The position numbers and the translations under genes are program-made. A stretch of DNA of 64,000 bases from an uncultured Chloroflexia bacterium (lineage in GTDB: Bacteria > Chloroflexota > Limnocylindria > Limnocylindrales > CSP1-4), in assembly GCA_963728745.1 (NCBI GenBank), contig CAVSKY010000006.1:673030-737029 (forward strand), read 5' to 3'. Of the stretch, positions 1-51,505 are shown piece by piece; within the stretch, counting starts at the first letter, position 1, and every line of letters starts with the position of its first letter. Below the pieces are notes generated by a model that saw only the letters and a program-made list of their open reading frames with translations, made no database searches and had not been told where the DNA came from.

Positions 1-90
1 GAGGCGCTTCGGCGGCTCGGTGACGCCGCCGGTACGCAGCTCGAGGAGCGCCTCGTAGCGGCGTTCATCGATGGCATCGAGACCGCACAC
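1..90 (-). CDS. hypothetical protein, 5' end only (gene runs off left edge)
   Basis: GTG at 90-88 opens a frame that stays open to position 1 (VCGLDAIDERRYEALLELRTGGVTEPPKRL). Third positions are G/C-rich. Too short to identify. Confidence 0.25.
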   Translation of the reverse strand, partial: MCGLDAIDERRYEALLELRTGGVTEPPKRL

Positions 91-155
91 GACGCGCCGT
101 TGCCGGGCGTGGAGACCGGGACGCCTATCTGGGTTCCCAGCGTCCAAGTCGCCTG

Positions 156-13720: not shown

Positions 13721-13787
13721 ACACCGACGGATGCCCCCAGATCGCCGCTCACCGGCCGGGGCACCGAGAAAAAGGACCAGCACCACG

Positions 13788-15170
13788 ATGAGCGACTCCC
13801 GACCCGACGACGCCGATATGACGCAGCGCCATCAGCTGCCGACGGAACCGACGCGACCACCAGTGGTCCGCGCATCCGGCGATGCCGACGACGTCGGCGT
13901 GCCGCCCCCGACGGCTCGGCCCGAATGGACCCGCCACGATGAACCCGCCCAGTCGCCCACGCCGGAACGCTGGTACGAACCGGCCGCCGCAGTGCCGCCG
14001 ACGCCGGTGACCCACGGCGCGGTCACGGGCACGAAGGCTGGCCGTAGCGGTCTGGGCACGGTCCTTGGCGCCGCGCTCCTGTCGGCGGTGCTCGCCTCCG
14101 GCGGCACGCTCGTCGCCCTCAACGCGACCGGTGCGCTCGATCGGCCGGCTGCCGTGGCGACCACCCCGACCACGACCACCGTCGGGGCCAACAACCAGCC
14201 GGTCACGATCGACGAGTCGTCCGCCACGATCAACGTCGCCGCGAAGGCCAGCCCCGCGGTCGTCCGCATCACCGTCAACGGCAGCGTCGACACCTCGAGC
14301 GGGATCATCCCTGACACGGGCGTCGGCTCGGGCGTCATCTACGATGCCGGCGGCTGGATCCTGACCAACCGCCACGTCGTCGAGGGCAGCGACACGCTGT
14401 CGGTCGAGCTCAATGACGGGCGCGTCATGCGCGGCACCGTCTACGGCATCGATACCCTGACGGACCTCGCGATCGTGCGGGTCAGCGGCAGCGATCTGCC
14501 GGTGGCGCAGCTGGGCGACTCCAGCACGCTCAAGGTCGGCCAGCTCGTGGTCGCGATCGGCAGCCCGCTGGGGACGTACTCGAATTCAGTGACCAGCGGC
14601 ATCGTGTCGGCCAAGGGCCGGACCATCCAGACAGACGGCAACCAGAACCTCAACAACCTGATCCAGACCGACGCCGCGATCAATCCCGGCAACTCCGGCG
14701 GACCGCTGCTCGATGCGGGCGCCAACGTCGTCGGTATCAATACCGCGATCGCTGCGGACTCCAACGGCATCGGGTTCGCGATCCCGATCGACATCGCCCG
14801 ACCGATCATGGAGCAGGCTTTGGCCGGCCGGCCGCTGGCACGCCCGTACATGGGTGTCGTCTACCGGCCGATCGATCGCCAGTTCGCCGATGCCAACAGC
14901 CTGCCGGTCAGTGACGGCGCGCTCGTCCAGCCGGGCGGCACGCAGAACTCGCCGAGCCCAGCGGTCGTCGCCGGCAGCCCGGCGGACCGGGCGGGCATCC
15001 GCGAGGGCGACATCATCGTCAAGGTCAACGACCAGGCCATCGACGGCGACCATCCGCTCGATGCGACGCTCAGCGAGTACGCGCCGGGTGACACCGTCAC
15101 GCTGGCGCTGTTGCGCGATGGACAGACCACCACGGTGGAGCTGACGCTGGGGACGCGCCCGGATCGTTGA
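13788..15170 (+). CDS. HtrA/DegP-family trypsin-like serine protease with PDZ domain (PepD-like)
   Basis: TM anchor GTVLGAALLSAVLASGG. Catalytic contexts ILTNRHVV (His), TDLAIV (Asp) and GNSGGPLL (Ser). C-terminal PDZ (GIREGDIIVKVNDQAI). The start could also be ATG 13731. Confidence 0.88.
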   Translation: MSDSRPDDADMTQRHQLPTEPTRPPVVRASGDADDVGVPPPTARPEWTRHDEPAQSPTPERWYEPAAAVPPTPVTHGAVTGTKAGRSGLGTVLGAALLSAVLASGGTLVALNATGALDRPAAVATTPTTTTVGANNQPVTIDESSATINVAAKASPAVVRITVNGSVDTSSGIIPDTGVGSGVIYDAGGWILTNRHVVEGSDTLSVELNDGRVMRGTVYGIDTLTDLAIVRVSGSDLPVAQLGDSSTLKVGQLVVAIGSPLGTYSNSVTSGIVSAKGRTIQTDGNQNLNNLIQTDAAINPGNSGGPLLDAGANVVGINTAIAADSNGIGFAIPIDIARPIMEQALAGRPLARPYMGVVYRPIDRQFADANSLPVSDGALVQPGGTQNSPSPAVVAGSPADRAGIREGDIIVKVNDQAIDGDHPLDATLSEYAPGDTVTLALLRDGQTTTVELTLGTRPDR

Positions 15171-20085: not shown

Positions 20086-21861
20086 TCAGGTCGGGGCGGC
20101 GGTCGGCGGTGGCTCGGGCGTCGGCGTCGGCGGTGGCTCCGGCGTCGGCGTCGGTGGCGGCGTGGGCGTCGGTGTCGGGACCGGGGTGGGCGTCGGTGTC
20201 GGGACCGGGGTGGGCGTCGGGCTGGGGGTCGGCTCGGGTCCCAACGAGATGACGTAGTCGACCATCGTGCCCTTCGCGACGACGACGCCCGGCGCCGGCA
20301 CCTGGGTCACGACGAGACCGATCGGGACGACCGGATCGAACGCCTCGGTCTTGGCCCCTGGCAGGAGCCCGGCCGTCACGATCTCCTGTACGGCCAGCGC
20401 CTCGGTCTTGTTGCGGAGGTCCGGCATCGGCACCTGTTCGAGGCCTGACGCGACGGCCACGCGTACGGTCGACCCGACCGCGACGAGCGTGCCTGCCGGG
20501 AGGTCCTGGGCGGTGATCGTGCCGACCGGCTGCTCGGACGGTTGCTCGGTCACCTCGAGCTTGATACCGAGCGCGTCGGCTTCCTCTGTCGCGTCGGCGA
20601 GGAGCTTGCCGACCAGCTCGGGGACCGCCACCTGTTGGGGTGCGGTCGGCTGGCTGGGCCCGGACAGGAGCTGGAAGGTGATGAAGGCGACCGCGATCAG
20701 CAAGGCGATCGCCGCGAGGCCGGCGACCCAGACGAGCGGACTCGTGCCCTCCTGGACGTCCTCGTCGTCGATGCTGCTCCGACGCGCCGGGCGCTCCGCT
20801 GGCCGTCGTCTGGCGGGCGCGTCGTCGGCTCCCGTGTACGCGTCCTGTGGGTAGGACATCACCGTCGGGTTGGAGCGCGCGACCCCGGCGGATGCCGCCA
20901 CTCGTCCGGCGGCAGCCGCCCCGACGGCAGCGCCGGCCGCGCCGGCAGCCCCTGCCGCCGCCGCTCCGCCGCCGGTGCGGGACATCTCGAGCGCGTCGGC
21001 CATCGACGCTGCCGATGCGAATCGGTCGACCGGCAACGGGGCCAGCGCCTTCCGTGTGATGGCTGCGACGTCGGGCGGCACCGAGGGCCTGACCAGGGCC
21101 GGATCGGGTGTCGAGCCGCTGAGCCGGGCGAGCGCGACTCCGGCGGCGCTGTCCCCTTCCCACGGCCGCGTGCCGGTGAGCATCTCGTACAGGACGATGC
21201 CGAGCGCGTAGATATCGGATTCGTTGGTCGCCGTCTCGCCGCGGGCCTGCTCGGGGCTGAAGTAGTGGACCGATCCGAGCGTCGTGCCTGGCAGCGTCAT
21301 CTGCGCCTCGGCGACGGCCCGGGCGATGCCGAAGTCGACGACCTTCACGCGTCCATCGCGACCGATCAGCACGTTGCCGGGTTTGACGTCGCGATGGACG
21401 ATGCCGCGCGCGTGGGCGGCGGCCAGGGCGCGGGCCACGGCACCTGCGATGCGCGCCGCTTGCGATGGCGGCAACGAGCCGTTCCGTCGCAGGATCGTCG
21501 CCAGGTCCTCGCCGTCGACGAACTCCATCACGATGTACGGACCCGAGGGATCCTCGCCGTAGTCGAACACGCTGACGACGTTGGGATGGTTCAGCGAGGC
21601 GGCGTTCTGCGCCTCCTGGCGGAAGCGCGATGAGAAGTCGGGATCACGCAGGTATTCCGGACGCAGCAGCTTGACCGCAACATCGCGACCGAGTTGGGTG
21701 TCCACCGACCTGAAGATCGTCGCCATACCACCCTGGCCGAGCTCTTCCACGAGCCGGTACCGGCCACCCAGGATCGTCCCGATCTCCGCCAAACGTGCCC
21801 CTCGACATGGTTCGGCGCGCCGCCGACGTTCGCGACGCGCTCGGTCGGCATCGTACCCCAT
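20086..21861 (-). CDS. Ser/Thr protein kinase with extracellular PASTA-like repeats (PknB-like)
   Basis: Kinase motifs LGQGGMATIF, VAVKLL, HRDVKPGNVLI, DFGIA and SPEQ. One TM (LVWVAGLAAIALLIAVAFITF). Repeated ~65-aa extracellular modules and a Pro/Thr tail. The start may be TTG 21792 instead. Confidence 0.92.
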   Translation of the reverse strand: MGYDADRARRERRRRAEPCRGARLAEIGTILGGRYRLVEELGQGGMATIFRSVDTQLGRDVAVKLLRPEYLRDPDFSSRFRQEAQNAASLNHPNVVSVFDYGEDPSGPYIVMEFVDGEDLATILRRNGSLPPSQAARIAGAVARALAAAHARGIVHRDVKPGNVLIGRDGRVKVVDFGIARAVAEAQMTLPGTTLGSVHYFSPEQARGETATNESDIYALGIVLYEMLTGTRPWEGDSAAGVALARLSGSTPDPALVRPSVPPDVAAITRKALAPLPVDRFASAASMADALEMSRTGGGAAAAGAAGAAGAAVGAAAAGRVAASAGVARSNPTVMSYPQDAYTGADDAPARRRPAERPARRSSIDDEDVQEGTSPLVWVAGLAAIALLIAVAFITFQLLSGPSQPTAPQQVAVPELVGKLLADATEEADALGIKLEVTEQPSEQPVGTITAQDLPAGTLVAVGSTVRVAVASGLEQVPMPDLRNKTEALAVQEIVTAGLLPGAKTEAFDPVVPIGLVVTQVPAPGVVVAKGTMVDYVISLGPEPTPSPTPTPVPTPTPTPVPTPTPTPPPTPTPEPPPTPTPEPPPTAAPT

Positions 21862-21905
21862 GCCTCACCGATCGACCGTCCGTCGCCCGGGGGCGACGGA
21901 CGACG

Positions 21906-25923: not shown

Positions 25924-27000
25924 TCAACCCGCGCCGGCTCCTTCCGCGGAGCGGTCAGGCGTCGTCGATTCGCGCCGCGCCGGCATCAGGCGGATCGACG
26001 TGAACGGGACCCGGATCTCGCGGAAGACCTCGATCGAGACGAGGAAGCCGGCAAAGAGGAACAGGACCCCGAGGAACTTCCCGAGCTGGAACAGGTCCGT
26101 CGAGCCAAAGCGGTTCAGCGAGTCGGTAAGCGTCGGGATGAACGCTCCGATGGCGATGAGGATCGTCGCCGGCACGCGGCTGTGGATGCGGCCGGCGCCG
26201 ATGGCCCGGATCGTGCCCGGCACCGACGCGAGGAAGTTCACGAGGATCGCGACCGGCGCGATGAGCAGGTTGAACAGGAACTGGTCGCCGGGCTGGCGCG
26301 GGTCGAGCGAGTACGGCAGCACGCGACGCTTGGGCATGAACACGTACGTGCTGAACACCGCCCCGAGGATCAACGCGAAGGCGCCGGTCACGTTCAGGAA
26401 CGGCGTCAGCAACCTGAGCTGCGGCGGCAAGAGCGTCGCGACCGGCATGCCGGTGGCAGCATCGACGGCGTACCCCGGCGGCGCGATCGTCGTGGTCGCC
26501 ATGAGGACCAGGCTCAGGATCGTCGCCCCGACCACCGCCCCGGCGGCCAGGGACGGCCAACGCTCGTTCTGGAAGTACGTCTCGACGGCGACCGCGAGTG
26601 CCAGCACACCGGCGGCGATGAAATACAGCAACGGGAGCGCACCTGCGCCGTCGTACTCGGGGCGGTTACGGACCAGGAACGTGAACAGCCCGGCCAGGAA
26701 CAGGCACAGCGCGACGCTGTAGCCGAAGCGCGTCCGTCCCAGCAGGAACGCCGTCCCGAGACCGAGCCAGCCGGCGGTCCAGACGGCGCCTGTCAGGTAC
26801 CAGGTCCGATACAGCGCCTCGTTCCAGCCGCCGAAGCCAGCGAGCGCCTCACACCCCGCGGCGACTCCGAAGAACAGCATGCCGATCGCCCAGATCAGCT
26901 GGAACCCGCCACGCCGCTCGCGCCACTGATCGAACAGCGCGACGCTGAAGACGAGGGCAAGGATCGCGGTCAGTGCCGGCAGCATGATCTCGAGGCGCAT
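25924..27000 (-). CDS. hypothetical polytopic integral membrane protein
   Basis: 358 aa with about 10 predicted hydrophobic helices and no family recognised. ATG 27000 lies 2 nt after the upstream stop. Confidence 0.7.
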   Translation of the reverse strand: MRLEIMLPALTAILALVFSVALFDQWRERRGGFQLIWAIGMLFFGVAAGCEALAGFGGWNEALYRTWYLTGAVWTAGWLGLGTAFLLGRTRFGYSVALCLFLAGLFTFLVRNRPEYDGAGALPLLYFIAAGVLALAVAVETYFQNERWPSLAAGAVVGATILSLVLMATTTIAPPGYAVDAATGMPVATLLPPQLRLLTPFLNVTGAFALILGAVFSTYVFMPKRRVLPYSLDPRQPGDQFLFNLLIAPVAILVNFLASVPGTIRAIGAGRIHSRVPATILIAIGAFIPTLTDSLNRFGSTDLFQLGKFLGVLFLFAGFLVSIEVFREIRVPFTSIRLMPARRESTTPDRSAEGAGAG

Positions 27001-27002
27001 CG

Positions 27003-27677
27003 TCAGCCGCCGAGACGCTGATGAGTCTCGATGAAGCGCAGCAGCAATCGATCCAGCAGGGCGGAGGCGTCACCGTACAGGCCGGCCAGCCGAGTCGGAT
27101 CCAGCGACCGGCGTCGGGCGATCCGAGCGAGTTCCGCGAAGAAGGGCTGGCGCGCGAGGACGAAACGGGAGACCGCCTCGGTCAGGCTGGTGCCGCTGCG
27201 CGCGAGCCGTGCCGCCTGATCGTCGACGACCGCACAGGCCTCGGCCTCAAGCCGAGCACGCGTCCGCGTGTCACTCGGTCTGGCGTCGAGGAAGGCGATC
27301 AACCCGGCGATCAGCTGGCGCCCATCGCGTCGATACGCGTCGCGGTCAGCGTCGACGGCCGCGACTCCGGCGGCGGTCTGCTGCGGGCGCCGCGACGGGT
27401 CGGCCGCGTAGTGCCGGCGGTAGACCTCCGTCAGTCGGGCGGGCGACGCCCCCATCGTTGACAAGGGCCGGATCGCGCGCCCGCCGCGGTCGGCGGCCAG
27501 CTGCTCGAGGGCCGCGCGGTCGAAGCGTCGATGGCCGCCCGGCGTCGTCCAAGCGGCGACCCGGCCGTCATCCGCCCAGCGACGGAGCGTGTCCGGGTCC
27601 ACCCCGAGGAGCTGGCTCGCCGGACCGAGTGACAGCCAGCGGCCGGAGCGGATCGAGGAAGTGTCGGGGTATGCCAT
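27003..27677 (-). CDS. MerR/excisionase-type HTH transcriptional regulator
   Basis: N-terminal HTH LSLGPASQLLGVDPDTLRRWADDGRVAAWTTPGGHRRF, with a helical C-terminal domain. First gene of a tightly packed minus-strand string (27677 down to 23389). Confidence 0.75.
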   Translation of the reverse strand: MAYPDTSSIRSGRWLSLGPASQLLGVDPDTLRRWADDGRVAAWTTPGGHRRFDRAALEQLAADRGGRAIRPLSTMGASPARLTEVYRRHYAADPSRRPQQTAAGVAAVDADRDAYRRDGRQLIAGLIAFLDARPSDTRTRARLEAEACAVVDDQAARLARSGTSLTEAVSRFVLARQPFFAELARIARRRSLDPTRLAGLYGDASALLDRLLLRFIETHQRLGG

Positions 27678-34342: not shown

Positions 34343-35461
<1,119 letters not shown>

Positions 35462-35633
35462 CGACGCACTCCTCCATCCCCAGCTCCATCGCGGGTCCAT
35501 GCATCCCAGTCGCCGAAGCGATGTCCCGCACGAAGGCGGAACGCGGACGGACCCCGTACGTGCAGCGTCGGGTCAGTGCATCGTAGGGGCGACCGCCGAC
35601 TGCTTCAAGCCCGGACTGGTCTACGATCGGCCG

Positions 35634-36008
35634 ATGGTCGCCACGATCCGCGGCATGCCGGCGGGCATCCGCCTCTTCATGCTGTACGCCCTCGTGATCC
35701 TCGCTGGGATCGGGCTGAGCCTGCGCTACGTGGTCGACCAGGCGATCGCGGCACCGGTCAGCCTGCCGGGGATCGTGGTGATGGTCCTGCTCGCGTACAC
35801 GATCTTCACCACCACCCTGGTCTTGCAGCGGAAGCAGGCCGCATTCGGCCTGGCGGTCGGTCTGGCCAGCCTCACGATCCCGCTGGTCCTGCTGCTGGCC
35901 ATCAGCCCGGTCCATCCGGCTCTGCCAGTCTTCACGGCCGCAGTCGCCCTGCTGCTCTTCCGCGGCCTGCTGCGACCCGAGGTTCGCGCCTACCTGTCCG
36001 AGACCTGA
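35634..36008 (+). CDS. hypothetical small membrane protein (4 TM)
   Basis: From ATG 35634: MVATIRGMPAGIRLFMLYALVILAGIGLS..., with four hydrophobic helices. The upstream part of the ORF overlaps the ATPase gene start region. Confidence 0.6.
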   Translation: MVATIRGMPAGIRLFMLYALVILAGIGLSLRYVVDQAIAAPVSLPGIVVMVLLAYTIFTTTLVLQRKQAAFGLAVGLASLTIPLVLLLAISPVHPALPVFTAAVALLLFRGLLRPEVRAYLSET

Positions 36009-40542: not shown

Positions 40543-41409
40543 ATGATCGACCGCCAGGCGCGCGATCTGCCGCTCGACGCGCATCTGCACACCGACCTGT
40601 CGCCGGATAGCGACGTACCCATCGACGTTTTTGCCGAGGCCGCAGCAGAGCGCGGCGTCGCCGAGATCGCGATCACCGACCACGTCGACTTCGTGCCCGA
40701 CACGCCGGCCTACGGGTACACGACGTTCGAGCAACGGGAGCGCGTGGTCCGTGATGCAGCCGGGCGATGGGCCGAGCGGGGCGTCGCGATCCGGTTCGGC
40801 GTCGAGATCACCTGGGACAGTCGCCATGCCGCCGACATCCGCGAGCACCTCGCCACGCACGCGTACGACTTCGTGATCGGCTCGGTCCACATCTACCGCG
40901 GATCGCCATTCGCGGCGGGCAATATCGTCGGCTGGATCGCCGGGCGGTCCCTGGGCGAGGTCGTGGCGCCGTACTTCGACGAAGTGACCGCCGCGGCTCG
41001 CTCCGGTCTGTTCGACGCGCTCGGCCACATCGATTTCGTGAAGCGCTGGCTGACACCGCACATCACGCCGGCCGACCTCGCTGCCGCTCCGGAGCTGTAC
41101 GAGCCGATCCTCGCTGCGCTGGTCGAGACGGGGACCGCCCTCGAGATCAACACGAGTGGCCTGCGCCAGGCTCCCAACGAGACCTACCCAGCCCCGCCGA
41201 TCGTGGCGCGCTTCCAGGAACTCGGTGGCCGAGGCGTGACGGTCGGCTCCGACGCCCATCGCGCGGATGCGTTCGCGTGGGGACTTGACGACGGCTACCT
41301 GGCGGCTTCGCTCGCCGGTTTCGACGCCCTCGCCTTCCGGCGCGGTGGCGCGTCCGTGGCGGTGCCGCTGAGCGCCGGACCTAACGCGATCGCGGGACGT
41401 TCGTTGTGA
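40543..41409 (+). CDS. PHP-domain phosphoesterase (HisJ-family histidinol-phosphatase-like)
   Basis: Metal-binding motifs DAHLHTDLSPDS, ITDHVDF, GSVH, LGHIDF and GSDAH. Confidence 0.82.
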   Translation: MIDRQARDLPLDAHLHTDLSPDSDVPIDVFAEAAAERGVAEIAITDHVDFVPDTPAYGYTTFEQRERVVRDAAGRWAERGVAIRFGVEITWDSRHAADIREHLATHAYDFVIGSVHIYRGSPFAAGNIVGWIAGRSLGEVVAPYFDEVTAAARSGLFDALGHIDFVKRWLTPHITPADLAAAPELYEPILAALVETGTALEINTSGLRQAPNETYPAPPIVARFQELGGRGVTVGSDAHRADAFAWGLDDGYLAASLAGFDALAFRRGGASVAVPLSAGPNAIAGRSL

Positions 41410-42005
41410 CCCTCGACGACTCCGCGATCGAGCGGTTGGTACAGGAAGCCCGCGCGGGGGACGCCTGGGCGTTCGGCCTCCTGTTCGACCACTATCACCT
41501 GCCGGTCTATCGCTACATCGCCAGCCGCGTCCACCGCCCGTCGGACGCGGAGGACCTGACGCAGCTCGTCTTCGTCAAGGCCCTGGAAGCGCTCCCGCGC
41601 TATGAAGTGCGGGGCATCCCGTTCGGGGGCTGGCTCTTCAGGCTGGCCAGGAATTGCGTCATCGACCACGTGCGCACGCGCCACGACCATCTCGATCTGG
41701 ACACCGCGAGTGGCCAGGCCGGCAGGGACGCGGGACCCGATGAGGTCACCGTGGCCAGGCAGCAGCTGGACGAGGTCGCGGTCGCATTGGCCGCACTCAC
41801 TGACGAACAACGAGACGCCATCGCATTGCGGTTCTTCGCGGGCCTGTCGGCGCGTGAGGCAGCAGCGGTGATGGGTAAGCAGGAAGGGACGATCCGCGGG
41901 CTCCAGTTCCGAGGCATCGCCGCGTTGCGGCGCCAGCTCCGGATCGACGAGCCGGCCAGCGACGGCGACGACCAGGTCGCCGACGCGAACGGGCGGATCG
42001 GTTGA
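41406..42005 (+). CDS. ECF-type RNA polymerase sigma-70 family factor
   Basis: Region 2 (VYRYIASRV...DAEDLTQLVFVKALE, WLFRLARNCVIDHVR) and region 4 (LRFFAGLSAREAAAVMGKQEGTIRGLQFRGIAALR). The GTG overlaps the upstream stop (GTGA). Confidence 0.9.
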   Translation: MTLDDSAIERLVQEARAGDAWAFGLLFDHYHLPVYRYIASRVHRPSDAEDLTQLVFVKALEALPRYEVRGIPFGGWLFRLARNCVIDHVRTRHDHLDLDTASGQAGRDAGPDEVTVARQQLDEVAVALAALTDEQRDAIALRFFAGLSAREAAAVMGKQEGTIRGLQFRGIAALRRQLRIDEPASDGDDQVADANGRIG

Positions 42006-42988
42006 TGGACGAGCAGATGATCGATCTCGTGGCCGGGGACGCACGTATGCGGCGGCGCCTTGAGGCGTACGCCGACGCGCGGCTGTCTCCGGACCTCGGG
42101 GCGTCGTCGCGGATGCGCGCGCGCGTCCTGGCCGTTGCCCATCGCCAGGCAAACCTCGCCCGGGCCGATGCGGCGCTGAGCGTCGTACATGGACGCGGCA
42201 TGCCATTCAGCACGCCGGCCGCTGATCGGATGGCGAGGCGTGCGGGATCCGCCGGCGCTCGGCTGCGGCGGCCACTGGCCGCGACGCTGGCCGCGGCCCT
42301 CGTCCTCGGCGGCGCTGCGGGCACAGCACTCGCGGCTCAAGCGGGTGGGGCCCTCTACGAGCCGCGGGTGTGGATCGAGACACTGACCCTGCCGAGCGAT
42401 CCGTCGACCCGCGCGGTCGCTGAGCTCGAGCGCCTCGAGTCGCGACTCCGGGAAGCGGACCAAGCCACGCGCAACGGCGACGCGGCCGGGGCAGCCGCAG
42501 CGCTGGCGGCCTATGAGCGGATCATGGAGTCGGCCTCCGAGGCAGCCATCGTCACCAACGACGAGGTCGCCGTGGCGATCCTCGAGGCAGGCGTCGGTCG
42601 CAATGTCGACGTGTTGCAGGCGTTGATCCTGGAGGTGCCGCCGGGTGCCGCCGAGGCGATCTCGCGCGTCGTCGAGCGGGCCGTCGCCCGCGCGGTGGAG
42701 CGCAGCGAGACCGCGATCGAGCGGATCGATACTGCCGGACCGTCCGACAACGGCGGCGGCAACGGCGGGAGTCCCGGTGGCCCAGGTGGTGGCGCTGGTG
42801 AAGCTGGTGGCGCGGACAAGCCGACCAAGCCACCGACCCCGGCGCCAACGCCCAAACCGACCAAGGAGCCCAACGCTGGGCCGACCGACCCAGGTGGCCA
42901 GGGCGGCCAGGGTGGCGGGCAGGGCAACCCGAACGAACCGAAGAAGACGCCGAAGCCCGACCCGACGCCGCGGCGAACGCCTCGCTGA
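42005..42988 (+). CDS. putative anti-sigma factor / membrane protein (DUF5667-like), with Gly/Pro/Lys-rich tail
   Basis: Starts 1 nt into the sigma stop. Cytoplasmic N-terminus and one TM (LAATLAAALVLGGAAGTALAA). Helical extracytoplasmic domain, then a low-complexity GGNGGSPGGPGG...KPTKPPTPAPTPKPTKEP tail. The family assignment is tentative. Confidence 0.6.
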   Translation: MDEQMIDLVAGDARMRRRLEAYADARLSPDLGASSRMRARVLAVAHRQANLARADAALSVVHGRGMPFSTPAADRMARRAGSAGARLRRPLAATLAAALVLGGAAGTALAAQAGGALYEPRVWIETLTLPSDPSTRAVAELERLESRLREADQATRNGDAAGAAAALAAYERIMESASEAAIVTNDEVAVAILEAGVGRNVDVLQALILEVPPGAAEAISRVVERAVARAVERSETAIERIDTAGPSDNGGGNGGSPGGPGGGAGEAGGADKPTKPPTPAPTPKPTKEPNAGPTDPGGQGGQGGGQGNPNEPKKTPKPDPTPRRTPR

Positions 42989-43030: not shown

Positions 43031-43795
43031 ATGCCGGCCGCAGGTTCGCTCCAGCTCGACGTCCTGGGCGCCGGACCGGCGTATACCGACCGGCCAGGGG
43101 CGGCCGGTGCGGCCTACCTGGTACGGGCCGGTACGACCGCGATCGTGCTCGATCTCGGGCAGGGCGTCTTCCCGCGTCTGGCCGCCCAGATCGAGCCGAG
43201 CACGCTCGACGCGATCGTGATCAGCCACCTCCACCCCGATCACTTCATCGATCTCGTCGCGCTTCGCCACTACCTGCGCTGGCAGTTCCACCCGACGCGC
43301 CATGTCCGGGTCATCGCCCCCGCGGGGCTCGAGACGCGCATCGACGCGCTCCACGACGAACCGGGGTTCACGGCGGCGTCGCTGGCCGTCGAGGAGATCG
43401 TGATCGGTACGACAGACATCGGCGATATTCGACTCGAGGCCAAGCGGGTGACCCACACACCCGACAGCCACGCCTTCCGGGTGTCAGCGGGTCGCGAGGG
43501 TATCGGCCTTGTCTATTCCGGGGATTGCGGCCGCGCTGAGGATCTCGATGCCCTCGTGCGCGAAGGCGACGTCATCATGAGCGAGGTGTCATTCGGACCC
43601 GGGCCTGTCGTGCACGACGCGGTCCATCTGGACGGGCCCGCGGTCGGTGCCCTCGCGTCGAGGACCGGAGCCGGGCGCGTCCTGCTCACGCATCTCCAGA
43701 TGGGGTTCGATCAGGCCGCGACGGTCGCCTCGGTGGCGTCCAGCTACGTCGGGCCGATCGAGTTCGTCGAGCCGGGGGCGCGCCTCACCATCTGA
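43031..43795 (+). CDS. MBL-fold metallo-hydrolase
   Basis: ISHLHPDHFIDL (HxHxDH) and later SGDCG and THL motifs. Confidence 0.85.
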   Translation: MPAAGSLQLDVLGAGPAYTDRPGAAGAAYLVRAGTTAIVLDLGQGVFPRLAAQIEPSTLDAIVISHLHPDHFIDLVALRHYLRWQFHPTRHVRVIAPAGLETRIDALHDEPGFTAASLAVEEIVIGTTDIGDIRLEAKRVTHTPDSHAFRVSAGREGIGLVYSGDCGRAEDLDALVREGDVIMSEVSFGPGPVVHDAVHLDGPAVGALASRTGAGRVLLTHLQMGFDQAATVASVASSYVGPIEFVEPGARLTI

Positions 43796-43932: not shown

Positions 43933-44604
43933 CTAGCGGACGTCGTCCTTGCGGATGACGGCGCGCGCGGGCGTCAGCAAGAGCGCGGCGGCGAGCAGGC
44001 CCGCCATCGCGAGGAGCACGATCCGCCAGCCATCGCCGGTCGGCCCTGTGCCGGTCCCGTCGATCGTGCTGGTCGAAGGCAGTGTCGGGTCGGCCGTGGC
44101 GTCAGGCGGCGGTGTGCCGGTCGCACCACCCACACCACCGGTCGGTGCCGGGGTCGGTGATGGCGTCGCGCCAGGCAGCGTCGGCGTCGGTGCCAGGGTC
44201 GGCGTGGGCGTCGGAGCCAAGGTCGGGGTCGGTGACGGCGTCGCCTGGGCCGGGAGATTGCAGGCGTTGTTGTAGAAGGCCTGGCCTGCGGTCGTCCAGT
44301 TCAAACCCGGGAAGCTTCCACCCGTGAAGTCGAACGGCGGGATGATGTCACCCCATTCGACCGTGATGCCGTCGAACCAGACAGGACCCGTGTGATCGGC
44401 ATGCCCACTGACGTCGCCGCTCTTCGACGGGTTATGGACGACATACGGATTGCTGTGGGAGCCGGTGCTGTGGCAGATCGTGACGGTGTCCGGTCCGGCC
44501 GCGATCACGGTCGAGGACGGCACGAACAGGGCGGCGGCCGTGAGGCCGGCCACGGAGAGCCAGGCCAGCCGCCGACCGAGGCGAGAACGCGTTTGGGCAA
44601 TCAT
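43933..44604 (-). CDS. secreted Pro/Thr-linker surface protein, paralog 1 (ICH-x-TGS-x-x-NPY domain), conserved C-terminal module
   Basis: ATG 44604, preceded by GGGGACC with 7 nt spacing. Signal MIAQTRSRLGRRLAWLSVAGLTAAALFVPSSTVIAAG. Core TICHSTGSHSNPYVVHNPSKSGDVSGHADHTGPVWF. PT linker. Tail PTGGVGGATGTP...TLPSTSTIDGTGTGPTGDGWRIVLLAMAGLLAAALLLTPARAVIRKDDVR. Confidence 0.85.
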   Translation of the reverse strand: MIAQTRSRLGRRLAWLSVAGLTAAALFVPSSTVIAAGPDTVTICHSTGSHSNPYVVHNPSKSGDVSGHADHTGPVWFDGITVEWGDIIPPFDFTGGSFPGLNWTTAGQAFYNNACNLPAQATPSPTPTLAPTPTPTLAPTPTLPGATPSPTPAPTGGVGGATGTPPPDATADPTLPSTSTIDGTGTGPTGDGWRIVLLAMAGLLAAALLLTPARAVIRKDDVR

Positions 44605-44752
44605 TCGATACGGTCCCCAAGGTTGGATGAGGCAGACGCCTCGAAGCGATGACGGTCTCGGCACAGCGGCCCCCGCGCACAGGTCCGAGGCCGCGGATAG
44701 TCCCATGGTCCGGGAGCGGCGTCTAGTACTTTCGGCGACACGCGAGCGTCAA
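44605..44752 (-). promoter_or_regulatory. conserved 5' leader/promoter region, copy 1
   Basis: In mRNA sense it contains TTGACG-N18-TACTAG, GTACTAGAC, CCATGGGACTATCC, the hairpin GAGGC-GTCT-GCCTC (44629-44642) and the RBS-like GGGGACC. The blocks are shared in order with copies at 45794-45940 and 48179-48304. Confidence 0.5.
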
Positions 44753-44848
44753 ATTCCCGACACCGGTGCGATCGGACACCAGGGGGCATCGGACATGACG
44801 ACGACCGGGCGCCGGTGAGGCCACCCGGTCGATCAGGAGTCGAGACGG

Positions 44849-44885
44849 TGGGCGGAGCGGCGCACGGACAGCGCGTCGCTCCGCC
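44849..44885 (-). terminator. conserved 10-bp GC hairpin 3' of paralog 2
   Basis: GGGCGGAGCG-N17-CGCTCCGCCC, with stem and loop almost identical to 43864-43900. Confidence 0.45.
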
Positions 44886-44917
44886 CGGGTCTCGGGGACC
44901 CCAGGGTTAGGCTGCCG

Positions 44918-45793
44918 CTAGCGCGTGTCGTCGTCCTTGCGGATGACGGCCCGTGCGGGCGTCAGCAGGAGTGCGGTGGCGAGCAGGCCCGCCAGCGCAA
45001 GGAGGATCAGCCGCCAACCGTCGCTGGTCGGCCCAGTCCCGGTGGCGTCAAGCGTGCTGGTCGATGGCAGTGTCGGCGCCGAGGTCGCACCGCCGGCGCC
45101 GCCGGCAGGCGTGCCCGTCGCGCCACCGACGCCGCCGGTCGGGGCTTCGGTCGGCGCTGGCGAGCCGGTAGGCGCCTCGGTCGGCGCCGGCGTCCCGGTC
45201 GGCGCAGGCGTGCCGGTCGGCGCGGGCGTGCCGGTGGGGGCCTCGGTCGGCGCGGGCGTGCCGGTCGGCACGGCGGTCGCTGTCGGTGCGGTCGTCGGCG
45301 TCGGAGTCGGTGCCAGGGTCGGCAGTGCGGTGCACGTGTTGCCGTTTTGCTTCTGGGTGACGACGAACGGCGTGCCGCCGTCGACCGATCCAGCGAACGT
45401 CACGGCGCCCGGGCACGGGTTCTCATCCATCTCGAACAATGTCCAAGGGAAGAGCTCGATCCCGTCGTTGGTGTCGTTCTGGCTCCACGCGCCCTGCGCT
45501 TCGCCATCTTCGATGACGCACGCGCGGACGACCACGGTCCCGTCCGTGCCGAAGCCGTTGGGCGGTTCGGCCCGGCTCCACGTGACGGTCAGTCCGGCAG
45601 CCGAGATCGATAGCGCGACGAGCGGACTATCGGCGCCCGTGGTGGTGTTATTGCAGGCGACATCGTGCGGCACTGGATCCACGAGTGAGGCTGCGACCGG
45701 CGCCGCCGGGATGAACAGGGCCGACAGGGCCATCGCGGTGACGATCAGCCAGGCGAATCGGCGTGAGCGACGGGTGCGTTTCGATCCACTCAT
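44918..45793 (-). CDS. secreted Pro/Thr-linker surface protein, paralog 2, conserved C-terminal module
   Basis: ATG 45793 after GGGGACC with 7 nt spacing. Signal MSGSKRTRRSRRFAWLIVTAMALSALFIPAAPVAAS. Unique Cys-containing core. Long PT(A)[13 protein letters not shown] linker. Tail PTGGVGGATGTP...TLPSTSTLDATGTGPTSDGWRLILLALAGLLATALLLTPARAVIRKDDDTR. Confidence 0.85.
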   Translation of the reverse strand: MSGSKRTRRSRRFAWLIVTAMALSALFIPAAPVAASLVDPVPHDVACNNTTTGADSPLVALSISAAGLTVTWSRAEPPNGFGTDGTVVVRACVIEDGEAQGAWSQNDTNDGIELFPWTLFEMDENPCPGAVTFAGSVDGGTPFVVTQKQNGNTCTALPTLAPTPTPTTAPTATAVPTGTPAPTEAPTGTPAPTGTPAPTGTPAPTEAPTGSPAPTEAPTGGVGGATGTPAGGAGGATSAPTLPSTSTLDATGTGPTSDGWRLILLALAGLLATALLLTPARAVIRKDDDTR

Positions 45794-45940
45794 TCGATAG
45801 GGTCCCCAAGAAGGTCGAGGCATACGCCTCATTGCGATGAAGACCCTCGGCGCTGCGCCCCCGCGCACCAATCCGAGGTTCGGGGATAGTCCCATGGTCC
45901 TGGACCATCGTCTAGTACTTTCGGCCCAGTTCGTTGCGAC
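45794..45940 (-). promoter_or_regulatory. conserved 5' leader/promoter region, copy 2
   Basis: GTACTAGAC (45910-45918), CCATGGGACTATCC (45884-45897), hairpin GAGGC-GTAT-GCCTC (45817-45830) and GGGGACC (45801-45807). The upstream block CGTCGCAACGAA is shared with copy 3. Confidence 0.5.
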
Positions 45941-45960
45941 GTGGCACCGAACCCTCCGGG

Positions 45961-46000
45961 AAAAATGAAGGATCGCCGCCCATCGCGGACGACGATCCTT
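45961..46000 (-). terminator. intrinsic terminator of paralog 3
   Basis: mRNA sense: AAGGAUCGUCG-loop11-CGGCGAUCCUU (11 bp including one G-U) followed by CAUUUUU, 21 nt after the stop. Confidence 0.75.
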
Positions 46001-46020
46001 GGTGCGTGGACGGGTTGGGA

Positions 46021-46758
46021 TCAGCGATCGCTGGCCTGTCGGCGTGAAGGGGTGAGCACGATGAGGGCGGCCAGGGTGCCGGCAAGGGCGAGGATCGCCA
46101 GCCGCCAGAGCTCGATCGGCGTCGATGTGTTCGTGCTGGCCAACGTGTCGGTGGCCGGGAGTGTGGGACGGGGCGTCCCAGTCACGCCGCCGACCTCACC
46201 GGTGGGTGCTTCTGTCGGCGCGGGCGTCGACGTTGGCGTGGATTCCGGCGCAGGCGTTGGCGTGGGCGTCGCATCCGGCTCCGGCGTGGGCGTGGGCTCT
46301 GGTGTCGGCGTCGGGGTCGGCTCCGGCGTGGGCGTCGGCGTCGGCTCCGGCGTGGGCGTCGGGGTCGGCTCGGGCGTCGGCGTGGGCGTCGGCTGGACGC
46401 ATGCGCCGATGCTCAGGTTGAAGGTCTTGGTCCACCCCCGGGTGCCCGTCGGATCGTCCCAGGCCGTCACTGCGACCTTGGCGGTGTGCGCCTGGGTAGC
46501 TGGCTGGACCGCGAACGTGTTCGAGTACGACGACGTGAAGGAGAACGGCGAGCCCGCGACATCGGTGCCGTCGATCTCGACGTCGACCGAGTTCGAGCCG
46601 CCGGCGTTGTACTGGGTGAGGGTGACCTTGAGGCCGTTTTGGCAGGTCAGCGAAACGTTCGGTGTGTGGGCTGACACTGCGGTCGGCGCGGCGAGTGCCA
46701 GTGCCGCCAGGGCGGCGACGCCGATCCAGGAGAGTCTGCGCGTCGTTCGTGTGGACAT
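46021..46758 (-). CDS. secreted Pro/Thr-linker surface protein, paralog 3, conserved C-terminal module
   Basis: ATG 46758. Signal [30 protein letters not shown]. Beta-rich core of about 115 aa bounded by two Cys. (PTPTPEPT)n linker. Tail [61 protein letters not shown]. It has its own unrelated 5' region. Confidence 0.85.
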
Positions 46759-46807
46759 GTCGTTGGTTCCCCCCGGAACTAATGAGGCCAAAGCCTCGGC
46801 TGGTGGA

Positions 46808-46846
46808 TGAAGAACGGCCGCCACCCAAAGGTGGGCGGCGGCCGTC
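46808..46846 (-). terminator. intrinsic terminator of paralog 4
   Basis: mRNA sense: GC-rich imperfect hairpin ACGGCCGCCGCCCACC-UUU-GGGUGGCGGCCGU followed by UCUUC, about 40 nt after the stop at 46886. Confidence 0.6.
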
Positions 46847-46885
46847 TTGCTGCTCAGGGCCGGGTGCGCTCGGGGCACCTCGGGG

Positions 46886-48178
46886 TCAGCGGGCGCTGTC
46901 GTCCCTGCGGACCACGGCACGCGCCGGGGTCAGCATGAGGACGGCGGTCAGCACGCCGGCCATGGCCAGGAGGATGAGCCGCCAGCTGTCGCCGGCGGGG
47001 GCCGTCGGGCCCGCCACGTCCAGGGTGTCGGTGGCCGGCAGGGTCGCACGCGGCGTCCCGGTCACACCCCCGACGCCACCCGTGGGCGTGGGCTGGCTTT
47101 CAGGCGAGTTATCGACGATCACGATGGTCCAGCTGAGCTGCGAGACGTCACCCTCGTTGGGTTCGCACTCGATGAGCCCGCCGAAGTCCCAGATACAGGT
47201 CACTGATAGATCGATGTTGAGCTCGACGAGGATCGGGTCCGTGCCGACGAAGCCGGCCGGGACGACGGTCTCGACGATCCAGTACATGCCGCCATCGAGC
47301 AGATCGGTGTCGAGCATCCCGCCCGGCGCAGCCGCCGGACCGAAGACGAGCTCGTCCTGGTCGGTCTCGAAGACCTCGTCACCGTCATCGGCCCACACCT
47401 CGAACGTAGCGCCATCGAGCGCGTCGTCGTCGGCGGGATCGGCGGTGCCCTTGTTGTCGACCTTGGCGATCAGGATGCTGGCCTGGCGCGGCTCCTCGGT
47501 CGGGGCCGGCGTTGGGGTCGGCGTCGCACCCGGCGGGGTCGGCGTCGGCGTGGGCGTGGGCTCAGGCGTGGGCGTGGGCTCAGGCGTGGGCGTGGGCTCA
47601 GGCGTAGGCGTGGGCTCAGGCGTAGGCGTGGGCTCAGGCGTAGGCGTGGGCGTGGGATCAGGGGTCGGCGTCGGCGTCGCCTGGATCGGCGCATCGAAGC
47701 AGAACGAGATGTGGCTGATGCCGTTGCCGCTGCCGTCCTGGGGCTCGAGTTCGGTATCGCCCATGGACTCGGTGGCGCCGGCAGTCGCCGCATACACGTA
47801 TAGCTGATGCTTGGACGATCCGGCCTTCACGAAGACCGCGTCGATGCCGAAGGTCGACGACCAGTCGAAGCTGCCGGGCTCACCGGAGTCCGACTGCTCG
47901 AAGTTCGACACTGTGATGGTCCCGAAGCCGGCCACGTTGATCGTGCCGTTCTTGGGCGGATCCGACTTGACTTCCTGCCACGGCTGGCCACCGCCATGCG
48001 TCGCGGCGAAGGTCGCGCAGGTCGGGTTGCCGCTGTTGATGGCGATCGGGTTGACCGATGCAGCCAGCACAGGCGCGGCCGATGGCGCCAGCAGCGCCGC
48101 CGTCGTGAGGGAGAGCACGGCCAGCCACGACAAGCGGCGGGCCAGGCGCGGTCGCGCGCCAAAACAAGCAGACGTCAT
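46886..48178 (-). CDS. secreted two-domain surface protein, paralog 4 (N-terminal beta domain + SpaA/Cna-B-like prealbumin-fold domain), conserved C-terminal module
   Basis: ATG 48178 after GGGGACC. Signal [40 protein letters not shown]. Domain 1 ends in [11 protein letters not shown] linker. Domain 2 ([10 protein letters not shown]...[13 protein letters not shown]...[14 protein letters not shown]) resembles Gram-positive SpaA/Cna-B-type domains. Tail [66 protein letters not shown]. Confidence 0.85.
47547..47660 (-). repeat. near-perfect 18-bp tandem repeat (about 6 units) encoding the (PTPTPE)n linker of paralog 4
   Basis: Plus-strand unit ggcgt[g/a]ggcgtgggctca is repeated head to tail from 47547. 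Similar but less regular repeats lie in paralog 3 (about 46255-46390) and in the kinase tail (about 20140-20225). Confidence 0.85.
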
Positions 48179-48304: not shown

Positions 48305-48475
48305 CTGTGGCGACCGGCAACCGCACCGTTCCGTCATCAACCGCCCACGAGACGCCGATTTCGTTGCGACGCGGCAACGATGGGTACTCCCAGTACCCCA
48401 GGACGCACGGGCCAGGACCCGCACCGGTACGATGGGCGCCCCTCCAAACGTCCACATCGGAGGTCCGACGCCGCC

Positions 48476-50194
48476 GTGATCCCGCCGCCACTGCGCACGC
48501 AAGTCCGCGACGCGGTCCGGCGCGCCTGGGACAAGGCCATCGACGACGGAGCGTTCGCCAAGCCCGCGGACGACGACAGCAGACCGGACGTCGAGGTCGA
48601 GCATCCAGCGGATCCGGAGCATGGGGATCTGGCGAGCAACCTGGCACTCAAGCTCGCCCGCCCCTACCGCAAGCCGCCGCTCGAGATCGCGACGTTGCTG
48701 GCGGCCAAGCTCGTGCGCGAAGGGAGCGCCGATGGGTCGTCCTCGCCTGTCGAGGCGGTCGAGGTCGCACCGCCGGGCTTCCTGAACATCCGGATCAAGC
48801 CAGAAGCGCTCGAGACGATCGTGGACGGGATCCTGGCTTCGCCCGATGCCTGGGGGCGGGTCGATCCGGTCGAACCCCGCGCGGTCAACGTGGAGTTCGT
48901 GTCAGCCAACCCGACGGGACCGCTCACGGTCGGCAACGCCAGGGGGGCCTTCATCGGCGACCTGCTGAGCCGCGTGCTCGAGGCAGGCGGACAGCGCGTC
49001 ACGCGCGAGTACTACTTCAACGACGTCGGCGGCCAGATCCCGAACCTCGGCGCATCGATCGTGGCGATCCGACGCGGCGAGGCTATCCCGGACGATGGCT
49101 ACCACGGCGGGTACGTGGAGGAGCTCGCGACGAGCGTGCCCGACGACGTGTGGGCGGAGGCGATGTCCGGCGAGGCTGATCCCGCGGCGATCGTCGGCCA
49201 CTGGGCTGCGGGTCTCGTCCGCGAAGGGATCGAGGCGAGCCTCGAGCGCCTCGGCGTCCACTTCGACGTCTGGACGACCGAAGCGTCACTGCACGACGGT
49301 GGCTGGGTCGAGCGCGCCGTCGAGCGACTCCGGGAGCGAGGCCACGTCTACGAGGACGACGGCGCTGTGTGGTTCCGCTCGACCGACTTCGGCGACGACA
49401 AGGATCGGGTGATCTATCGGTCCAACGGCCAGCCGACCTACTTCGCTGCGGACATCGGCTACGTGACCGAGAAGTTCAGCCGCGGGTTCGATCATCTGAT
49501 CTACATCTGGGGCGCCGACCACCACGGGACGGTCGCCCGAGTACGCAACGCGGCGCGGGCGATGGGCTACGACCCAGCCCGAGTGCAGATGCACCTGTAC
49601 TCGTGGGTGCGCTTCGTGCGCGATGGCGTCGAGGTGTCGATGTCCAAGCGCGCCGGCGAGTTCGTGACGCTCGACGAGGTCCTGTCCGAGGTCGGGGTCG
49701 ATGCTGCGCGCTGGTTCTTCGCCTCCCGCGGCGCGACATCCGCCATCGACTTCGACATCGAGCAGATGCGCGGTCATCGAGAAGCGCTCGAACAGGGTCA
49801 CTACGAGGAGGCCAGCAAGAACCCGGTCTACTACGTCCAGTACGCCCATGCACGCATCGCATCGATCCTGCGAAAGGCGAGCGACAGCGGTCTTGTGCCC
49901 GCAGAAACGGTCGCCGGCACGCTGGCGGCCGGACCGGAGGCGGCGCTCGCCCGCGCCATCGTGCGATTCCCGGAGGTCGTGGAGGACGCGGTGACGGCCG
50001 AGGAGACACAGGGCATCACCGGCTACGCGACGGAGCTGGCGACGGCGTTCCACGCCTTCTACCGCGACGCACGCGTGGTCGATCCTGCCGAGCCGCAGCG
50101 GTCGGCCGCACGCCTCGCGCTCGCGCGCACGGCCCAGATCACGCTCGCCCGGACGCTCGATCTGCTCGGGATCTCGGCGCCCGAGTCGATGTAG
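48476..50194 (+). CDS. argS: arginine--tRNA ligase
   Basis: Class I signatures [15 protein letters not shown] (HIGH-like) and [10 protein letters not shown] (KMSK-like), with a DALR anticodon-binding C-terminus. GTG 48476 (GGAGG 12 nt upstream) is preferred over ATG 48380, which adds an Arg/Pro-rich extension. Confidence 0.92.
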
Positions 50195-50226: not shown

Positions 50227-51505
50227 CTAGCCGGCCAGGCCGAGCACGTTCGCGACCTTGGTCAGCGTGGGGTCGTCGCTGCCGATCACGACCCAGCGGG
50301 TCGTGCCGCCTTCGCCGGGGAGCACCGAGCCGGGACCCCCAGCCGTGCCGACGGCGGTCTCGGCTGTGACCGCGAACTCCTCGGCATCACCATCGGTGTC
50401 CCACGCGGTCCGCCAGGCGATGGCCCACGCGTCACTCGGCCCAGCGAGGACCGCGATCCGGTCGCCGCCCCAACCGGCGGCCGCGTCGGCCGCCGCGGCG
50501 ATCGACGGCGCGCCGAGCCAGATCCCGATCTGGTGCTCGCCCATCGTGTTCTCCTGCACCAGGGACCAGCCGGTCCCCATGCTGGTCGCGAGGTCGTCCG
50601 GCAGATCGACCTCGACCGGTGCCTCGCCGCTTTCGTACTTCTGGGGATGGAGGATCTGCTCGGTCGATTCGGGCATGTCGCCGAAGGCGGTGTCGATGGC
50701 CGCCCAACCGCCTGACAGTTGGAGCTGCTGCACGAAGAGCGTGCCCTGGATCGCCGAGAACAGGATCTGCGACTGGACGATCGGCGGAATGCGATCCAGG
50801 GCCGCCTGCAGCTCGGGGTCGCTCGACGCCTGGAGGACCTGCGCGAACTCCTCGCTGGTCAGGTGCTGCTGGAGCCAGAGCGTCATGAGGATGTAGGCGT
50901 CACCTTCGACGAGCGACTGGCGGGCGAGGAGTCGATCGGACTGGTCCTCGAGCCCATCGGTGACGGCCTCCAGGTCGAAGTGCTGATCCTGCAGGGCGTG
51001 GTCGTACTCGTGCGAGTAGTAGACCCGCTCGACCGGCGCCGACGCCACCCTCCTTCGAGACGACGTACAGCTTCTCCGCGGCCGGGTCGTAGAGGCCGGC
51101 CACCTGGCTCTCGAGGAGGTCGACGAAGATGGCCTCCAGATCGGCGTCCTGGGTGATGAGCCCGAGTCCCTTGTAGAGCATCTCGTCGGCGGCCACCTGC
51201 GCGGGCGGGTAGTCCTGGTCGAAGGTCGTGCGGATGACCTCCGAGAGCTCTTCCGTCGACAGGATGGTCGGTGTGACCGGCTTCTTCTCTTCCAGCCCGC
51301 GGATGGCCCGCACTTGCTGATTGACCTCGGCGTAGACCGCGTCGAAGCCCGCGGATCCCGACGTCGTCGGAGCTGGCGAAGCCGACGCGGTGGGGCCCGA
51401 GCTGGGACTCGGGCTCGGCGACGAGGGCGCGTTGCCGCACGCGGTCGCGATGAGCACCGAGATGGCGATCAGGGTGATCGATCGGTGACGGGATGGTCGA
51501 GTCAT
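50227..51505 (-). pseudogene. secreted lipoprotein Zn-metalloprotease (HExxH), +1 frame disruption
   Basis: The N-terminal part (signal plus lipobox LIATAC, ...AAEKLYVVSKEG) continues one base later as VASAPVERVYYSHEYDHALQDQHF... (HEYDH). The junction is at about 51043-51052, at a GGG/CCC run. Confidence 0.8.

Follow-up and report, generated by a model that had tools for sequence, protein, structure and literature searches.

Tripartite C-terminal sorting signals are well known as a kind. The LPXTG signals of sortase substrates combine an L-P-x-T-G pentapeptide with a hydrophobic segment that begins within a few residues of it and a positively charged extreme C-terminus, on proteins that enter export through an N-terminal signal peptide. 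SpaA-, SdrD_B- and DUF11-type domains are the usual cargo of sortase substrates, several of which are often encoded in tandem in one genome, and in staphylococci and streptococci a family-specific signal-peptide motif, YSIRK-G/S, is paired with the LPXTG signal. In the PGF-CTERM/archaeosortase A system of archaeal S-layer glycoproteins, the signature lies at the outer edge of a constant-length helix followed by a basic cluster, and Thr/Pro-rich linkers precede the tail of archaeosortase substrates. The PEP-CTERM/exosortase and GlyGly-CTERM/rhombosortase signals also follow the order of motif, helix and Arg-rich end, are restricted to certain lineages and are carried by unrelated cargo. Variants of the sortase motif include LPDTS, LPNTA and NPQTN. 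LPxTD is also listed as a variant (PMC9210967). Here, we describe a C-terminal tail shared by four tandem genes in a 64 kb stretch of DNA from an uncultured Chloroflexia bacterium (the window; contig CAVSKY010000006.1, positions 673,030 to 737,029; 70% GC), which, judged from its sequence, is very probably a dedicated sorting or anchoring signal.

The four genes, g1 to g4, follow one another head to tail along the minus strand between positions 43933 and 48178, and their products have one common build: a signal peptide, a cargo domain that differs from gene to gene, a Pro/Thr-rich linker and the same tail of about 65 residues. Gene ends were taken from a list of open reading frames (ORFs), and likely starts were placed at ATG codons that have an upstream Shine-Dalgarno-like GGGGA and open a Sec-type signal peptide. 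Two of the four resulting lengths equal those called on a public contig (ERZ25039576:contig_85295, locus L044 in our numbering) that is 98.5% identical to window positions 36852-57196. In the following list, the lower coordinate of each gene is its end and the higher one its likely start.

43933..44604, minus strand: g1, secreted protein of 223 residues, from the ORF and start choice and of the same length as the gene on the near-identical public contig; signal peptide MIAQTRSRLGRRLAWLSV... (N-terminus with the signal-peptide motif, 44530-44604), small 'TICHxTGSxSNPYV...WGDIIPPF' cargo domain, Pro/Thr-rich linker, tail
43933..44145, minus strand: g1 tail, PTGGVGGATGTP; TLPSTST at 44065-44085, WR-helix-LTPAR at 43963-44028, end AVIRKDDVR
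44918..45793, minus strand: g2, secreted protein of 291 residues; signal peptide (…RRSRRFAWLIV…; N-terminus with the motif, 45720-45793), unknown cargo domain, Pro/Thr-rich linker, tail
44918..45142, minus strand: g2 tail, PTGGVGGATGTP; TLPSTST at 45053-45073, WR-helix-LTPAR at 44951-45016, end AVIRKDDDTR
46021..46758, minus strand: g3, secreted protein of 245 residues; signal peptide (N-terminus with the motif, 46700-46758), Ig-like cargo, (PTPE)n linker, tail
46021..46206, minus strand: g3 tail; TLPATDT at 46144-46164, WR-helix-LTPSR at 46042-46107, end RQASDR
46886..48178, minus strand: g4, secreted protein of 430 residues; signal peptide (N-terminus with the motif, 48100-48178), N-terminal domain, Pro/Thr-rich linker, SpaA (prealbumin-like) domain, tail
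46886..47086, minus strand: g4 tail; TLPATDT at 47024-47044, WR-helix-LTPAR at 46919-46984

The tail reads PTGxVGGxTGTP, TLP[AS]T[SD]T, a spacer of about 14 residues, WR, a 17-residue helix, TP and a basic end. The original prediction, made from the window's sequence without database searches, held that all four proteins end in the same module, and alignment bore this out with four shared blocks (PTG[GE]VGG[AV]TGTP, TLP[AS]T[SD]T, WR[LI]..LA[LM]AG and LTP[AS]R) and 28 invariant columns; the tail coordinates that it gave are right to within one codon. A six-frame scan of all 64 kb placed the WR-helix and GGVGG patterns, as well as LTPxR in combination with both, only in the g1-g4 ORFs. The shared C-terminal tail of these four neighbouring genes is confirmed as real.

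Since the genes are in tandem, and g1 and g2 have 5' leader sequence in common as well as approximately 81% DNA identity across about 370 nt, the similarity might merely reflect four paralogues that were recently duplicated in tandem or homogenised by gene conversion, and have no signal function. Over 41 aligned motif codons, however, each of the six tail pairs has more synonymous than non-synonymous differences (13:4 to 20:9), which indicates that the tails are old paralogues under protein-level constraint and not recent copies. Together with the presence of the module on unrelated cargo in hundreds of protein clusters and about 40 genomes (365 clusters, see below), this synonymous excess refutes a duplication artefact, to which we attach practically no probability.

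A profile built from the four window tails was searched against 1.84 billion representative proteins, a check that the original prediction had proposed, and matched 365 protein clusters (50% identity) at E ≤ 0.001, 80 of them at E ≤ 1e-10. An absence of the motif elsewhere would have told against the original prediction, and the module is thus by no means limited to g1-g4. Local re-scoring of 209 retrieved family proteins showed that the match ends no more than 10 residues from the C-terminus in 200. About 40 genome assemblies of Limnocylindria or Chloroflexota contributed the matches, and the tail proteins that carry an organism name belong almost entirely to Candidatus (Ca.) Limnocylindria (Chloroflexota), the class that contains the order Limnocylindrales. 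A scan of one genome per species yielded 43 tail loci, nearly all titled Candidatus Limnocylindrales, Chloroflexota or 'uncultured Chloroflexia' (Danish long-read genome assemblies). Genomes of Ca. Limnocylindria are about 2.4 Mb in size with 69% GC (PMC10608941), with which the GC content of the window agrees.

Across the family, the upstream block takes the form G-x-V-x-G-x-T-G-T-P and the motif reads T (94%), L (75%) or P (19%), P (100%), P (71%) or A or S, T (100%), D (85%) or S (12%) and T (71%), where the residue after the invariant Thr is N or A in a few members and never G. The spacer between motif and helix, which had been picked out from the window as unusually long, is indeed so, measuring 14-15 residues in 80% of 190 tails and mostly 13-16. 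It is followed by a hydrophobic run that is 17 residues long in 92% of tails, with positions conserved as Ala (93%), Leu (95%) and Leu (89%). WR and LTPxR had been taken as invariant features, which is true of the window; family-wide, W is present in 90% and R in 91% of tails at the helix boundary and the downstream T-P in 83-92%, and the final R is variable, with three to five basic residues after the T-P. AlphaFold modelling on a 36-sequence tail alignment returned one confident helix (D39-L58 of a 71-residue tail) and left the motif in low-confidence coil. All four window proteins have a signal peptide, and a heuristic detected one in 77 of 108 relatives.

Public annotation captures this family poorly. 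On L044, g4 is broken into pieces of 257 and 105 residues and g3 is replaced by a 249-residue call on the opposite strand, in which Pro/Thr codons are read as a Gly/Val repeat, and most database relatives of the tail proteins are short fragments. The mangled calls and fragmentary relatives together indicate that the tail family is badly under-annotated.

The proteins that end in the tail have diverse cargo. Pfam analysis of 105 full-length relatives identified SpaA in 11, as well as SpaA_4, SdrD_B, DUF11, DUF5979, DUF7601, DUF7507 and Trypsin_2 domains, and NCBIfam placed a 'choice-of-anchor L' domain, which by definition is paired with different anchors in different lineages, in one relative; around 80% of the cargo has no known domain. 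The SpaA/Cna-B-like domain that had been noticed in one window cargo proved to be PF17802 in the fourth, g4 (29.4 bits versus a cut-off of 23.1, E=8.9e-7). Pfam counts were used here because BLAST clustering of the cargo was confounded by the Pro/Thr-rich linkers. A search for homologues of the g1 cargo domain, made for the sake of their anchors, returned only short fragments without C-termini.

Most tail proteins also have a signal-peptide motif in common at the N-terminus. W-L-x-V was found in the signal peptide of 61 of the 105 relatives, many of the others being truncated as gene calls, and roughly 1 Mb of related DNA contains the motif almost exclusively within tail genes or frameshifted fragments of them. 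Such a pairing of a family-specific signal-peptide motif with a C-terminal signal is reminiscent of YSIRK-G/S and LPXTG, although the two signal-peptide motifs are unrelated in sequence. The twin Arg (RR) of the tail-family motif could mean export by the twin-arginine translocation pathway.

A second tail subtype was found outside the window, where the gene immediately following the tail genes in 12 related loci encodes a DUF11-repeat giant protein of approximately 1,900 residues, for example:

L028:10110-16172, plus strand: giant DUF11-repeat protein, with 11 other loci likewise

The giant-protein tail reads ...ATGTPRITLPPTD[ST], 12 residues, NPGF, a different helix, VTPVP and RERxRR. It keeps TGTPxITLPPTD[ST], TP and the basic end, and WR and the window-type helix are absent. 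TGTP, TxPxTD, T-P and the basic end are therefore the elements common to both subtypes.

To compare the tail with described signals, Pfam and NCBIfam (release June 2026) were run on the four proteins, their tails alone, the 105 relatives and the giant-protein tails, and returned only low-complexity or sub-threshold matches. The LPXTG models TIGR01167 and PF00746 gave no match at E ≤ 10 to the four proteins or the tails alone, and neither was among the families matching the 105 full-length relatives. This comparison had been suggested as a means of exposing a known signal, and no existing LPXTG or CTERM model scores on the tails or the relatives. One public record names a family member 'cell wall anchor protein, partial', and the model behind this name was not found.

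The resemblance to sortase signals lies in the layout, with signal peptide, cargo, [LP]-P-x-T core, hydrophobic transmembrane segment and basic end at the extreme C-terminus all present, in the SpaA, SdrD_B and DUF11 cargo, and in the occurrence of several substrates per genome, often in tandem. In contrast to LPXTG signals, the tail has Asp or Ser after the Thr and Pro for Leu in 19% of members, a fixed spacer of 14-15 residues instead of a few, a strongly conserved helix with WR before and TP after it, and a GxVxGxTGTP block upstream, and no canonical sortase has so far been found alongside it. The absence of the LPXTG Gly was correctly noted but is not novel by itself, as LPxTD is a listed variant. 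The proposal of an undescribed sorting signal is accordingly supported in part: it stands as regards the lack of a model match, the 365 C-terminal clusters and the layout, and not as regards the Gly-less motif. The bare LPxTD pentapeptide was known already; what is new is the extended module, the paired signal peptide and the lineage, which are uncatalogued in current libraries (Pfam, NCBIfam), and what is unusual in the tail itself is the fixed spacer, the conserved helix and its flanking motifs. Neither PEP nor Gly-Gly precedes the helix, no PEP-CTERM or GlyGly-CTERM model matches and, unlike in those signals, a spacer separates the motif from the helix.

The likeness to PGF-CTERM raises a different explanation, in which the signal would be read inside the membrane in the manner of exosortase, archaeosortase or rhombosortase. 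A polytopic membrane enzyme would recognise the helix together with the short motif that borders it on the outside, which is xxWR in window-type and NPGF in giant-protein tails, and would then remove the helix and attach a lipid or other anchor. TxPxTD would in that case be an additional site, for instance of glycosylation or of release at a later stage. The constant length of the helix agrees with this, as do its strongly conserved A-x-A-G, L and T-P, the W and R at about 90% each at the outer boundary, the Thr/Pro-rich linkers before the tail and the position of N-P-G-F in the giant-protein tails, exactly at the outer helix boundary. The giant-protein tails also match C-termini of ArtA-dependent S-layer glycoproteins (E=0.0015), Heimdall-CTERM (13.6 bits versus a cut-off of 24) and MYXO-CTERM. 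All of these CTERM-type matches nevertheless fail to reach threshold and are due in part to low complexity, and the only CTERM model to touch the window tails, PGF-CTERM (PF18204), scores 9.5 bits against 18.8 on a single tail. Moreover, the outer helix boundary of the window tails reads [GD]xWR and not PGF, and the host is a bacterium. No homologue of archaeosortases or exosortases was seen, and the polytopic ORFs of the window and the flanks gave no exosortase- or rhomboid-family Pfam match. This explanation also leaves unaccounted for why invariance is highest in TxPxTD, which lies 14 residues from the helix and is additional to the PGF-CTERM layout. We regard recognition inside the membrane as unlikely.

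That the tail is a dedicated signal of some kind is argued by its unrelated exported cargo, its confinement to C-termini, the fixed geometry of motif and helix, the basic end and the paired signal peptide. As to its mode of action, we tentatively favour a modular C-terminal surface sorting or anchoring signal, specific to Ca. Limnocylindria, that is read in the manner of a sortase signal at T-[LP]-P-x-T-[DS]. This choice follows from the invariance of TxPxTD and its presence in both tail subtypes, from cargo domains of the sortase-substrate type, and from the retention in this lineage of a sortase-fold protein (described below) together with a PASTA-domain kinase in the window that suggests peptidoglycan; LPxTD is, in addition, an accepted variant of the sortase motif (PMC9210967). 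Under this model, the protein would be exported through its N-terminal signal peptide with the family-specific motif, and the 17-residue helix and basic cytoplasmic end would hold it in the membrane, a topology suggested by the sequence and the AlphaFold helix. The cargo would be displayed on a disordered Pro/Thr-rich stalk. A dedicated enzyme outside the cytoplasm would then recognise T-[LP]-P-x-T-[DS]-T, at a fixed distance of about 14 residues above the helix; this would most likely be a transpeptidase of the sortase type, cutting behind the Thr and attaching the cargo to the cell wall.

The enzyme itself was sought around the tail genes. The original prediction had seen no sortase, exosortase or rhomboid gene in the window, and none was found by a TLxTC scan of the window, by Pfam analysis of the polytopic ORFs and of positions 36.9-57.2 kb (a coverage that takes in part of the soluble window ORFs), or by tblastn of the window with the sortase-fold protein described below. 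No sortase, exosortase, rhomboid or CPBP gene occurs within 10 kb in any syntenic locus, a phmmer search of all loci with Staphylococcus aureus SrtA found nothing, and Pfam listings for three syntenic loci contained housekeeping neighbours only (hut genes, argS, MBL, ECF sigma, PHP, kbl and tdh). Canonical LPXTG tails were likewise absent from the Limnocylindria DNA searched, a small sample. Literature searches on Limnocylindria with sortase, on Ser-sortases and on PGF-CTERM in Chloroflexi returned nothing relevant.

The only candidate enzyme seen is a class-conserved protein of sortase fold, putatively linked to the tail, in one of the related loci:

L031:13973-14887, minus strand: Ser-variant sortase-fold protein (P0210 family) of 302 residues, 3.8 kb from the L031 tail gene

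PF04203 covers 123 of its 125 positions in this protein at 25.6 bits, just under the cut-off of 26.6, and none of the NCBIfam sortase class models recognises the family. A database search gave 1,435 matches, the best 120 of which (P0210-P0329) are at least 64% identical, with one named Ca. Limnocylindrales. The family, with further loci L047-L130, consists of secreted proteins of about 302 residues encoded on contigs of 65-77% GC, some of which are assigned to Limnocylindria. In 114 of the 120 homologues, LW[IVLM]QTSEGP stands in place of the sortase TLxTC, so that the catalytic Cys is replaced by Ser, and H199, S265 and K274 are invariant in the family together with Cys176. AlphaFold modelled an N-terminal beta-sandwich and a C-terminal domain (predicted local distance difference test score, pLDDT, of 78), and the top 50 Foldseek matches in the PDB are all sortases, with target-normalised template modelling scores of up to about 0.7. 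This fold comparison was used because only the first strand could be aligned in sequence to solved sortases. By strand order in the model, His199, Ser265 and Lys274 would occupy the sites of the catalytic His120, Cys184 and Arg197 of S. aureus sortase A. We speculate that the invariant Cys176, within Y-P-x-C-N-V-A-M-Y, might be an alternative nucleophile.

The gene for this protein and tail genes were found together in two assemblies, CAWEHW (L025/L031) and JBKKDW (L022/L049), and the sortase-fold gene has a conserved neighbourhood of its own, consisting of carAB and a LiaF-like gene. The link between the Ser-variant protein and the tail is at most suggestive.

Several observations weigh against a sortase-type signal. 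No tail or relative reaches an LPXTG, PEP-CTERM, PGF-CTERM or other CTERM model, and the departures from the pentapeptide are systematic, with Gly never after the Thr and Leu replaced by Pro in about a fifth of members. The fixed long spacer, conserved helix, WR and TP would not be needed by a sortase signal and are a better fit to recognition inside the membrane. No processing enzyme is linked to the tail genes, and no canonical Cys sortase was present in about 0.9 Mb of Limnocylindria DNA, which represents two or three genomic regions sampled repeatedly. With regard to the candidate, four further loci (L047-L050) and 80 metagenome loci (463 kb) have no tail gene in its vicinity. In 84 of 85 loci it thus shows no linkage to the tail, and its proximity in L031 is possibly due to chance. 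The exchange of Ser for Cys could also make the protein inactive or give it a different function.

The lack of any enzyme linked to the tail genes across 43 genome loci also suits the simplest alternative, that the tail is never cleaved and requires no enzyme. The tail would then act as a conserved type I anchor whose stalk adjoins the membrane, the proteins would remain bound there, and TGTP and TLPPTDT would be sites of O-glycosylation or of contact with a partner. A conserved helix and cytoplasmic T-P make sense if they are retained, and glycosyltransferases of the GT-C type (PMT_2, GT87, PIG-V-like) directly adjoin a tail gene in two loci:

L032:10266-12934, minus strand: GT-C glycosyltransferase, right after the tail gene
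L025:10275-12032, minus strand: GT-C glycosyltransferase, right after the tail gene

These neighbours hint that the Thr/Pro-rich linker or the tail is O-glycosylated, but they occur in only those two of 43 loci. Furthermore, a plain anchor would not require P-x-T to be invariant and constantly spaced, the cargo domains are of the kind found on wall-anchored proteins and, to our knowledge, every well-studied case of a shared motif, helix and basic end on unrelated secreted cargo is a processed signal. An uncleaved anchor is a possibility that we hold to be somewhat doubtful, and a sortase-type signal is the reading that we tentatively retain.

The genomic setting of the tail genes is well conserved. 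They number one to four per locus and occupy one conserved slot, with only two of 43 loci (L031 and L036) having them elsewhere. The slot is bordered on one side by hut genes, a metallo-beta-lactamase (MBL)-fold gene, a lipoprotein HExxH protease gene and argS, and on the other by an MBL-fold gene, an anti-sigma/extracytoplasmic function (ECF) sigma pair, a PHP phosphatase gene, kbl and tdh. In the window, the nearest of these are:

41406-42005, plus strand: ECF sigma factor, conserved downstream border of the slot
42002-42988, plus strand: anti-sigma-like protein with a Pro/Thr-rich C-terminal end, conserved downstream border
43031-43795, plus strand: MBL-fold protein, conserved downstream border
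48380..50194, plus strand: argS (arginyl-tRNA synthetase), upstream border, present in 31 of 43 related loci and given for context only

The ECF sigma/anti-sigma-like pair is conserved at the slot in about half of the related loci, and it is possible that it regulates the surface-protein genes. Beside argS and one gene from the tail cluster, 22 of the 43 related loci encode a lipoprotein of Pfam family DUF8575 (lipobox LIATAC) with an HEYDH zinc-protease motif, which is split by a frameshift in the window (50227-51505, minus strand) and could, from its sequence, shed or process surface proteins.

Further membrane and surface proteins are encoded elsewhere in the window:

24-3143, plus strand: protein of more than 1,000 residues with seven Big_9/cadherin-like repeats, ending in a different anchor with two hydrophobic segments, …LAWLPIVRRKLG…
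13701-15170, plus strand: HtrA-type protease
20086-21864, minus strand: PASTA-domain Ser/Thr kinase
25924-27069, minus strand: polytopic membrane protein with eight predicted helices, no Pfam match above threshold
35427-36008, plus strand: polytopic membrane protein with four predicted helices, no Pfam match above threshold

The different anchor of the Big_9 protein indicates that the tail is not the sole anchoring device in this genome, and the PASTA-domain kinase is the basis for suggesting that the organism has peptidoglycan.

In its strongest form, the finding would be an undescribed sorting system of Limnocylindria, in which paired N- and C-terminal signals mark out a limited number of surface proteins for covalent anchoring by a non-canonical enzyme, either a His/Ser/Lys 'serine sortase' or a novel membrane enzyme by which the conserved helix is recognised; we consider this improbable on present sequence evidence. 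If the Ser-for-Cys sortase-fold protein is the enzyme, sortase chemistry would extend beyond cysteine, which would be of interest for protein-ligation technology. If the tail is only a glycosylated anchor, it would be an ordinary lineage-specific domain. A curated tail model would mend gene calls that are split, truncated or on the wrong strand, as 'X-CTERM' models did elsewhere, and the tail is a precise query for phylogenetic profiling towards its cognate enzyme. Ca. Limnocylindria (Ellin6529) is an abundant uncultured class of soils and lakes, and a defined sorting tail would provide a sequence handle on its whole surface proteome.

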